A DNA stretch of 64,000 bases from Escherichia coli (GTDB lineage Bacteria; Pseudomonadota; Gammaproteobacteria; Enterobacterales; Enterobacteriaceae): the NCBI RefSeq assembly GCF_003790525.1, contig NZ_CP033635.1; one strand, given 5' to 3'. Shown piece by piece: positions 15,001 to 18,000 of this stretch; the stretch's first letter is position 1, and each line of letters starts with the position of its first letter. A program made the position numbers.

Positions 15001-18000
15001 GTTGTTGTTGATTTGTTTTTTAATGCACGCGAAAAATTCGGGCGTCCTGAAGTGGAATGCATAAATGACTGAACACATAGAATTTGTTTTGCCTTACCCG
15101 CCAACGGTGAATACTTACTGGCGACGTCGTGGCAGCACATATTTTGTATCAAAAGTCGGTGAACGTTATCGCCGGGATGTGGCGTTAATTGTTCGCCAAC
15201 AGCGGTTGAAATTAAACCTGTCCGGAAGGCTGGCAATAAAAATTATTGCAGAGCCACCGGATAAGCGCCGCCGCGACCTGGACAATATCCTGAAGGCACC
15301 ACTGGATGCACTGACGCATGCCGGACTATTCATAGACGACGAGCAGTTTGATGAAATTAATATTGTGCGCGGTCAGCCCGTTCCTGGTGGGCGGCTGGGG
15401 ATAAAAATCACAGAACTGGAGTGCGCATGAATAACCAGTATTTACAGTTTGTGCGTGAGCAGCTCATTATCGCCACCGCTGATTTGAGTGGGGCAACAAA
15501 AGGTCAGCTTGAAGCCTGGCAGGAGAATGCCATGTTCGATACAGGGCGTTACAGGCGTAAAAAAATCCGGTACCGCGATGAAGTGACTGGAAAAATGATA
15601 ACGCGGGATAATCCACCAATCCCGGGAAAACAATCGCTGGCGAAAGGCTCATCAATTGCCCTGGTCAGCCCGGTTGAGTTTTCGACATCATCATGGCGGC
15701 GGGCGGTTCTGTCTATTGAAGAACATCAGAAAGCCTGGTTGTTGTGGTGTTACAGCGGGAGTATTTGCTGGGAGTATCAGGTCACTATAACCCACTGGGC
15801 ATGGGAAGAGTTTAAGGCCCATTGTGGCAACAGGAAAATTGCAGAGAAAACACGGGAACGCCTGAAAAAATTAATCTGGCTGGCGGCGCAGGCAGTAAAA
15901 GCAGAAATTTTTGGTAAGGAAGGTTACGAATACCAGGATCTGGCATTACTGGCGGGAGTGACAGCCAAAAACTGGTCCAAAACATTTACTGGTCACTGGA
16001 TTGCAATGAAACACATTTTTCACCGGCTGGATAGTGAGGCTTTATTGTTTGTGACGAGAACACGTTCAAAACAAAAGGCGGCATTTTCACAGTAAAGTAT
16101 TGCAAAAGTAGATTAAAAGGCATATATTTCGTGTGAATTTGATATTCTGCCGATTTTGTACGTAATGGCAAATCAAGCAAAACCCGCCGCCGAGTGGGTT
16201 TTTTTATACCTGAAAAAGACACAGAACATTAAATGTGATGGCTATTGTGCTATGAGTTTTTCCTGCTATGAAGCTTCTTGACTACATGGAGCTCCATTTG
16301 TTATGCAATATATTGTTATGTTTTTGAGTTGTTAATGGTGTTGCTATGGATGACAGTACTCTGCTCAGGTACTCTTCACTTTTTGTTGCTTATATGGGAT
16401 GTCTTGGGTGGGGAAGCGCTTACTTTTATGGCTGGGGTACATCCTTTTATTATGGTTTCCCATGGTGGGTGGTTGGGGCTGGTGTCGATGATGTGGCCAG
16501 AAGCCTTTTTTATGCCGTTACAGTCATTGTTATATTCCTGATTGGGTGGGGAGTCGGTGTTGTTTTCTTCCTGGGGATCAAACAAAAAAATAATGTGCAG
16601 GATCTGAGTTTTATCAGACTTTTTCTGGCGATATTGTTGCTTTTTGTTCCGCCTGCTCTGGAGTTTTCAGTAATTCATCGACGCGTTGCGCTAGATGCAT
16701 TGGTTTTATGCGTTATTGCTGCCTTAATAATTACGGTTTTTGTCAGGTCAGGAAGAAGACTTATTTCAGTCAAATGTTTTTCGGAAATGTCTTTTATTCG
16801 TCATCACTGGATTGAGTGTATGATGGTCGGATTCATGATCTATTTCTGGGGATTTTCACTTATTGCCGGTTGGTACAAACCCCAGTTTAAGAAGGAATAT
16901 CAGATGCTCCACTATGATAGTGTCTGGTATTATGTTCTTGCACGCTATGATGACAGGCTGGTGTTGTCGAAATCGTACAGTAATGGGAGTTCTACATTCG
17001 TTATACTTAATAGCGGGCAGATTGATGACTTCGAAGTTAATGTAGTCAGAGTGCGTTAATATTGCCTGAGTAATTTTCTGTTGACCGCTCAAATTCTTTT
17101 ACCATGTGTAGGCCAATATGCAGGATTTAATCAGGGAAGGGTATTGCAGAGCAAAACTGGCATAAGTATTATTCCGCATACGTCCCTTTAGCTCAGTGGT
17201 GAGAGCGAGCGACTCATAATCGCCAGGTCGCTGGTTCAAATCCAGCAAGGGCCACCAACCGCCACTAGCTCATCAGGAGAGAGCATCAGCCTTCTAAGCT
17301 GACTGTGCGGGGTTCGAGTCCCCGGTGGCGGTCCAGCGCCGACTTACCTCAGTCGGCAGAACAGTTTAGTTGTAACCATCAGGCCACCACTTCAATTCCG
17401 GTAGTCGGCACTAAATTTCCAGGCTCGTGCTCACGGCCTGCTTCATATCCGCGCCAGGTCCGTCGCGATTAAACCACAGGGCTTTTCAGGAGGGGCCACA
17501 GAGAGCGTCACACTGACCATTCCCTGTGGCTTGTGCTGAGATCCGGTCAGTGAAATTGTGCAAAGGGAATCTTCGGGAGCTTTGGGCAGAATGTCAGTTA
17601 TTGATGTTGACATCCTCCACACCCTGAAGGTCGGGGTTTTACGGCGCACTGGATAAAATACCTGAACAAACAGCCTCTTCGTGCGGCTTTTTTATAACGA
17701 GATTCTGACTTGCTGCCGTCCGTAATGTCGGATGGCGGAGGTGAGGGACTATGAGAATGGACGAACGATACAGTAACGCTGCATACGGCAGCGCAGGACT
17801 TGTTGCGTTCTTTGCCAGCCTGTCACTGCAGGATTGGGGATTTATTATCGGCGTGGCGTTCAGTATCATTCTTGGTGTTCTTACTTATCGCCTTAACAAA
17901 CGGGAGCAGGAAAAACGAACCCGCATATTGCTCGAAATTCTGGAACGAACTAATGCCGGTAATGTTCCGGCTACGGCACATGCTGTGGCTGAGATTGCGA

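Follow-up and report, generated by a model that had tools for sequence, protein, structure and literature searches.

A probable thrU-derived tRNA-Thr pseudogene in the late-region tRNA array of a lambdoid prophage at ompW in Escherichia coli

Results

Two standard tRNAs and a degenerate third element form the array

The 64,000-nucleotide (nt) stretch of Escherichia coli DNA analysed here (RefSeq assembly GCF_003790525.1, contig NZ_CP033635.1; hereafter the window) begins in ompW and runs on into a lambdoid prophage integrated there, which carries a short tRNA array with a degenerate third member. As annotated by PGAP in genomes of identical sequence, the prophage genes run in the order integrase, antiterminator Q, an open reading frame (ORF) of 237 aa, tRNAs, holin, lysozyme, terminase, and head and tail genes. 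The array consists of three tRNA-sized units lying head-to-tail on the plus strand at 17182-17413, with spacers of 1 and 2 nt. Two E. coli genomes, LR-31 and F1022, matched 17100-17720 at 100%, and PGAP annotates only a tRNA-Ile and a tRNA-Arg at the array in both. The original prediction, made from the sequence itself, had placed three elements here, and all three were confirmed at those coordinates and on that strand: a tRNA with anticodon CAU (17182..17257), a tRNA-Arg(UCU) (17259..17335), and a third element (17338..17413). Neither all three nor none of them were recognized as tRNAs; exactly two were called by ARAGORN, Rfam and PGAP.

The third element was found only below the usual thresholds. 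In a permissive Rfam scan (621-nt search), the tRNA model RF00005 matched 17338-17410 with 19.8 bits (E = 0.2), short of the gathering score of 29. ARAGORN made no call at its default or 90% thresholds; at 80% the element was called, but with a shifted anticodon ('Asn gtt') and together with a spurious reverse-strand call. PGAP annotates nothing at this position in the same-sequence genomes. The acceptor stem was paired at 7/7 positions, the D stem at 2/4, the anticodon stem at 2/5, and the T stem at 3/5, compared with 7/7, 4/4, 5/5, and 4/5 in host thrU, and the element failed to form a four-stem cloverleaf. Its T-loop reads TTCAATT and keeps T54-T55-C56. The T-arm core is lost through G53 to C, which breaks the G53-C61 pair, and G57 to A, and the encoded CCA is now CTA. 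The description given beforehand, of perfect acceptor pairing and a T-loop-like sequence without convincing internal stems, was thus accurate.

Minimum free energy (MFE) and centroid folds both contained a perfect 7-bp hairpin, GCCGACU-UACCUC-AGUCGGC, at 17338..17357 (+). It arose through the D-loop changes A17C and T20C, which duplicated the sequence of the 3' acceptor strand. The pairing probability was 0.56 for this hairpin versus 0.40 for the acceptor stem, compared with 0.0 versus 0.98 in functional alleles. A reverse-strand 'Plastid-ycf2' match and other sub-threshold Rfam hits were set aside as artefacts of tRNA-like sequence.

An element of this kind could work as an unusual tRNA, or as a small RNA with a regulatory or decoy role. 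Anticodon-loop positions 33-38 (UUGUAA, including UGU) and T54-T55-C56 are retained, and the fold energy was modestly below that of shuffled sequences (z = -2.3), as such a role would lead one to expect. However, 19.8 bits is a poor score for a tRNA, 8 of the 14 pairs in the internal stems are broken, and the element lacks G53 and has a changed base at position 32. Rfam families other than tRNA gave no match to the third element, and covariation was absent, all copies being identical. We consider a functional RNA of either type highly improbable.

The third element aligns with thrU and not with argO

Chromosomal thrU matched the third element at 81.1% identity over 74 nt (E = 3e-9) in 5420 of the 5426 complete E. 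coli genomes searched. A gap-free alignment to thrU-type tRNA-Thr(UGU) showed 61/76 identical positions, with UGU at the anticodon position; the two sequences have equal length and share the acceptor stem and the anticodon. The copy in the window differs from thrU by 15 of 76 positions, with three stems broken. The changes were G10C, A17C, T20C, and G24A in the D arm and loop, A27G, C28T, G30T, C32G, T39C, G42T, and T43C in the anticodon arm and loop, T47C in the variable loop, G53C and G57A in the T arm, and C75T at the 3' end, giving nine transitions and six transversions, an ordinary spectrum. The host gene sits in the thrU-tyrU-glyT-thrT operon upstream of tufB, whereas the copy studied here lies in a prophage.

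The original prediction had proposed an alignment to the ileZ-argN-argO array of Shiga toxin (Stx) phages, which would make the third slot an argO. This was not borne out, as the global alignment score was 15 to argO versus 46 to thrU. In related arrays the same slot is occupied by an intact tRNA-Thr, followed by a tRNA-Gly, and the third element aligned there without gaps. Because of the thrU match, the shared slot, and the poor alignment to argO, we assigned the element to thrU and not to a decayed argO. Two other origins were tried and rejected. A thrU/argO hybrid would not explain the changes, only 3 of the 15 derived states matching argO, and adenine-directed hypermutation of the core, of the type caused by diversity-generating retroelements, did not fit, with all four bases hit and nine transitions against six transversions. 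On sequence evidence, the resemblance of the third element to a tRNA is not a chance one, and the element is almost certainly a dead, decayed pseudogene of a thrU-type tRNA-Thr(UGU).

The related arrays have four members, Ile2(CAU)-Lys(UUU)/Arg(UCU)-Thr(UGU)-Gly(UCC), and were found in the phages PhiR47_1 and vB_EcoS-689R5 and in many E. coli prophages, among them those of UPEC 26-1, CFSAN029787, and CV839-06. They resemble the array in the window in order, spacing, and flanking upstream ORF, and the third element corresponds to their tRNA-Thr slot. The Thr gene of these arrays is intact (55-74 bits, with few or no differences from host thrU) and precedes a copy of glyT, whereas in the window the Thr gene is dead and the Gly gene is missing. 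In UPEC 26-1, the prophage Thr and Gly genes matched thrU and glyT on the chromosome of strain Sakai at 100%, and such host-identical copies imply, as far as sequence can tell, either recent capture or continuing gene conversion. In the host operon (locus L106, 501-860) tyrU lies between thrU and glyT, the homologues of the prophage pair (locus L005, 1739-1892).

The window allele diverges far beyond other Thr-slot alleles

The Thr slot was represented by a series of alleles. That of UPEC 26-1 had no change from thrU (Rfam 73.8 bits), those of CV839-06 and B4103-1 had one change each (71.4 and 64.4 bits), that of CFSAN029787 had four (59.5 bits), and that of M19, which carries no PGAP annotation, had three (54.8 bits). 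The window allele, with its 15 changes and 19.8 bits, shares the derived states T20C, G24A, G30T, and G42T/T43C with the milder alleles, and A27G with an allele from IMG/VR (L101, 4615-4690). These shared states suggested that the window allele nests inside the prophage variation in circulation and then diverges much further.

Several of these alleles were distinctive in themselves. The alternative anticodon stem of L101 is fully compensated (GATGA/TCATC), and two commoner Thr alleles (L008, 1203-1278; L007, 1201-1276) carry the 3' half of the stem change alone (3/5 pairs), one of them annotated as tRNA-Thr and the other unannotated. In another IMG/VR array (L158), which reads Met-Lys-Lys-Gly, the third tRNA has a thrU-type body with anticodon TTT instead of TGT, apparently the result of an anticodon switch in a threonine tRNA.

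Copies of the window allele were present in 19 of the complete E. coli genomes, one viral sequence, and two metagenomic sequences, and all were identical. The nearest functional alleles (M19-type and L101) were 11-12 differences away. Intermediates were sought with degenerate patterns in IMG/VR, a metagenome collection, and species-representative genomes, and by distant blastn in the 5426 E. coli genomes; all that turned up was identical copies or alleles with at least 11 differences. A further search for relatives of the module, based on the holin, gave 80 loci with 72-78% protein identity; only the identical contig had the pseudo-tRNA or its flank, and three of the 80 loci had just short matches to the tRNAs of slots 1 and 2.

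The first two tRNAs appear functional

The first tRNA (Rfam 64.1 bits) was labelled tRNA-Met(cat) by ARAGORN and tRNA-Ile by PGAP in the same-sequence genomes. Its homologues, from 100% down to about 80% identity, were all annotated as tRNA-Ile (5425 genomes), and it was identical to its relatives at 75/76 positions. Its body is of the ileX/ileY/ileZ type and not that of a tRNA-Met, and C4-G69 and C5-G68, which are TilS determinants, are both present. A tRNA of this ileZ/tRNA-Ile2 type would read AUA after lysidine modification.

Two stem mismatches had been reported in this tRNA, correctly, and cmscan flagged them as the non-canonical pairs U2.C71 and A27.C43. The latter is common to every relative, including ileZ of Stx phages. 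The former is due to a rare G-to-T single-nucleotide polymorphism (SNP) at 17183, where strain 135 and the IMG/VR copy have G; the T was seen in the window, LR-31, F1022, and TUM1886, and strain 135 is otherwise near-identical. The SNP lowered the Rfam score from 72.5 to 64.1 bits and changed the MFE from -33.5 to -26.3 kcal/mol. One family-wide mismatch and one recent SNP are no evidence for decay of the whole array.

The second tRNA, a tRNA-Arg(UCU) with an argN-type body, was called by ARAGORN, Rfam (56.7 bits), and PGAP. Its stems are fully paired (7/4/5/5), with zero non-canonical pairs flagged, in keeping with its earlier description as clean, and it would read AGA. Codon usage was counted in the LR-31 prophage, which shares an identical central module with the window. 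Per 1000 codons, the prophage versus the host flank used ATA 10.1 versus 2.0 times, AGA 6.8 versus 1.7 times, and ACA, with a much smaller excess, 14.3 versus 8.3 times. The first two tRNAs would add to the scarce host tRNAs for ATA and AGA, codons that are 4-5 times more frequent in the prophage than in the flanking host genes.

The slot-2 body (C1-G72, U73) was compared between the window (17259-17335) and the loci L004 (1579-1655), L005 (1660-1736), and L006 (1579-1655). Across prophages this argN-type body carries three anticodons: the window has UCU, Stx-type arrays have UCG, and many other prophages, in which it is annotated as tRNA-Lys, have UUU. The UUU form has the loop CCUUUAA, with C at the nearly universal U33, a T-stem mismatch, and Rfam scores of 44-45 bits. 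In TUM9803 (L011, 1082-2500), IS421 lies inside the slot-2 tRNA-Arg of the same array and leaves a truncated 63-nt tRNA-Arg annotation; the identical pseudo-tRNA-Thr module follows 3' of the disrupted gene.

The downstream flank links the array to Stx-type arrays

The non-coding flank behind the third element (17410..17494, +) was homologous to the sequence behind argO in other lambdoid arrays, as indicated by alignments, blastn, and folding. Blastn showed 73-75% identity over 80-89 nt to the post-argO flanks of lambdoid contigs, and the local alignment score was 49, compared with 13.4 +/- 2.4 (maximum 25) for shuffled sequences. The canonical terminator of the relatives corresponds to a hairpin at 17420-17440, which has lost its U-tract in the window (CTTCATAT). 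No glyT-type tRNA was found after the Thr slot of the window array. MAFFT had aligned the 50 nt 3' of the third element as the 3' half of a glyT remnant; this was rejected, the score of 13 being equal to the shuffle mean versus 49 for the post-argO flank.

In all copies seen, the pseudo-tRNA, the flank, and the holin gene were linked behind varied upstream parts, including slot-2 tRNAs of the Arg(UCU) or Lys(UUU) type, different Q genes, and the one IS421-disrupted tRNA-Arg. These linkages suggested that pseudo-tRNA, flank, and holin travel as one module. The remnant borders directly on a flank that in other phages comes after argO, which indicates that the array was rebuilt by mosaic recombination.

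The array was then compared with the ileZ-argN-argO array of Stx phages (e.g. Stx2a_F349, AP012530). A literature search on ileZ, argN, and argO returned almost nothing beyond general statements on the tRNA genes of Stx2 phages. In two reports, one tRNA-Met and two tRNA-Arg genes are placed near stx2 in Stx2 phages (PMC7946995, PMC4631060).

Both arrays have Q upstream and the lysis genes downstream. The slot-1 tRNAs are identical at 75/76 positions, slots 1 and 2 together reach 92.9% with the same slot-2 body, and the arrays are followed by homologous flanks that include a terminator hairpin. In contrast, slot 2 of the Stx-type arrays sampled is UCG and not UCU, slot 3 is argO and not a thrU-derived pseudogene, the spacers measure 7 and 13 nt instead of 1-2 nt, and stx lies downstream. 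No stx gene follows the array in the window, where the holin gene comes next.

Decay of a three-tRNA array like that of Stx phages, as put forward in the original prediction, was therefore upheld in part. A decayed third member, ileZ-argN homologues in the first two slots, the same position between Q and lysis genes, and a post-argO-like flank speak for it. The third slot, however, is of thrU type, the closest arrays have four members, and stx is absent. To judge from these comparisons, the ancestor of the array was a set other than the three genes ileZ-argN-argO.

Decayed members are common in related arrays

A survey covered 110 IMG/VR arrays anchored on an ileZ-type tRNA (loci L110-L229). 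The slot-2 element could not be called by ARAGORN in 31 of them (28%; L198, L210, and L145, for example), in at least three independent forms, and decay of array members is thus common in this array family. Like the third element in the window, these decayed argN-type elements are uncallable tRNA remnants within otherwise working arrays, and they differ from it in slot and parent gene and, in part, in the mode of decay, which involved insertion into or replacement of the anticodon arm, or internal deletion. The commonest decayed allele (80 nt) has a scrambled anticodon arm and a destroyed T-loop, with 7/7 acceptor pairs and 5/5 T-stem pairs kept. Its intact acceptor stem and scrambled interior are a further likeness to the third element.

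The ends of the third element carry almost no changes

Divergence of the third element from thrU was 20% overall and 29% at positions 10-57, and the adjacent flank was 25-27% diverged from its nearest homologues. The remnant has therefore diverged at about the level of its non-coding neighbour, which fits neutral decay. Some observations weigh against so simple an account. None of the 15 substitutions fell in positions 1-9 or 58-74 (hypergeometric P = 0.0008, for a post hoc choice of positions), and the 14 positions of the acceptor stem were likewise free of them (P = 0.03); such unchanged ends are not expected from neutral decay alone. No intermediate allele was found in the 5426 E. coli genomes, IMG/VR, the metagenome collection, or the species-representative genomes, and selection is not measurable because all copies of the window allele are identical.

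One explanation for the unchanged ends is that the remnant has lost its decoding role and persists as a signal for processing, its acceptor stem and adjoining T-stem pairs forming an RNase P minihelix under selection. Closely spaced E. coli tRNAs are reportedly separated by RNase P (Mohanty and Kushner). With array spacers of just 1 and 2 nt, the 3' end of tRNA-Arg would, across the 2-nt spacer, need an RNase P cut at the 5' end of the remnant. None of the 15 substitutions fell in the 20 minihelix positions (1-7, 49-51, and 63-72; P = 0.006, for a set chosen post hoc), and the commonest decayed slot-2 allele keeps the same parts. If true, dead members of tightly packed phage tRNA arrays would keep the acceptor and adjoining T-stem by selection as RNase P 'punctuation', which would explain both why all 15 changes avoid the minihelix and why that decayed argN allele shows the same pattern.

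However, the competing hairpin captures the 5' acceptor strand (0.56 versus 0.40), the G53-C61 pair is broken, and the 3' RCCA used by E. coli RNase P now reads ACTA. In another lineage of decayed slot-2 elements, two acceptor pairs are gone (5/7). The ends are also conserved in Stx-type arrays, yet with spacers of 7 and 13 nt, which favours recombination with intact alleles; some tRNA elements were indeed seen to be recombined in patches, such as an 81-nt allele whose anticodon arm is scrambled while its T-arm is intact. Because of the broken G53-C61, the ACTA end, and the competing hairpin, RNase P processing was ranked as a minority possibility, and we regard as unlikely both its action on this remnant and the wider proposal that dead array members in general are kept in this way.

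The conserved ends and diverged core could also be a recombination mosaic formed without selection, in which crossovers or gene conversion with intact arrays of other prophages in the same cell reunited a long-decayed core with thrU-identical ends, and a deletion between tRNA 3' ends removed the downstream tRNA; the element would still be a pseudogene. Opportunity for such exchange exists, with up to 12 such arrays per E. coli genome. An upstream breakpoint at or near the slot 2-3 junction is indicated by identical remnants following either an Arg-type or a Lys-type slot 2, and the flank downstream derives from an array of the argO type. Some arrays have an argO-like tRNA behind Thr (e.g. L095), and half-converted anticodon stems (ACTGA/TCATC) were seen in CFSAN029787 and M19. 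Nevertheless, the 3' 17 nt are identical to thrU and lie next to a flank without homology to thrU arrays, where a simple crossover would be insufficient, and neither a donor nor an intermediate was found in IMG/VR, the metagenome collection, or the species-representative genomes. We judge a mosaic origin of the conserved ends very unlikely.

Neighbouring genes and other features of the window

The late region starts with the antiterminator Q gene (15427..16095, +), identified from the ORF list and the PGAP annotation of LR-31 and F1022. A pR'-like sigma-70 match, TTGCAA-17-TATATT, at 16100..16128 (+) is a candidate late promoter by its consensus match; the number of hits in the promoter scan of this region did not exceed shuffle expectation. 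The interval between Q and the tRNAs holds the 237-aa ORF (16346..17059, +; ORF list and PGAP), a hypothetical membrane-like protein whose homologue in UPEC 26-1 lies at the same position with 86.6% nt identity. A 55-codon ORF across the remnant (17305-17472) is unannotated and overlaps tRNA-Arg, and was taken as spurious.

Downstream, the lysis cassette opens with a holin-family gene (17751..18023, +; PGAP 'phage holin family protein', WP_029400649.1), and an rrrQ-type endolysin, annotated by PGAP as lysozyme, follows at 18681..19214 (+). Just 5' of the holin gene, 17621-17693 (+) gave a weak isrK-like Rfam match (16 bits versus a gathering score of 50), which ends in a U-run and is 100% conserved across all copies of the module. 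Prophage small-RNA genes above the Rfam gathering thresholds were found at 5876-6348 (-) and 54432-54521 (-), comprising DicF, C4 antisense RNA, two isrK copies, and c4-a1b1, and the host Trp leader lies at 63162-63255 (-). The early-right region of the prophage contains a RelE/ParE-ParD type II toxin-antitoxin pair (13034-13596, -), which is annotated in the same-sequence genomes.

Discussion

Our analysis suggests that the lambdoid prophage at ompW carries a late-region array of two functional-looking tRNAs and a dead, thrU-derived third member, shaped by neutral decay and mosaic rebuilding, and we hold this to be the probable explanation. By analogy with lambda and Stx phages, the array would be transcribed with the late operon from a Q-dependent promoter. 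The third member would descend from a thrU-type tRNA-Thr(UGU) and would since have gathered some 15 point substitutions, at a rate similar to that of the non-coding DNA beside it. These substitutions break the D, anticodon, and T stems and G53-C61, and alter the encoded CCA. An intact prophage Thr gene, as in UPEC 26-1, would contribute dosage only and be dispensable, because it is identical to host thrU. The glyT-type tRNA is absent, and the remnant would have been joined to the post-argO flank by mosaic recombination.

The finding is real but ordinary, as decayed members are common in such phage tRNA clusters, and its practical value is small. A so far unannotated tRNA-Thr pseudogene can now be added to the annotation of the ompW prophage family (19/5426 complete E. 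coli genomes), and the link to Stx phages is corrected in that the third slot derives from thrU and not from argO. If the conserved ends were selected processing signals, they would add a modest new point on the maturation of polycistronic phage tRNAs. More broadly, lambdoid late-region tRNA arrays present themselves as a fast-turnover system, in which recombination exchanges slots, three anticodons occur on one tRNA body in different prophages, host tRNA genes are copied in exactly, and roughly a quarter of the arrays have a dead member.

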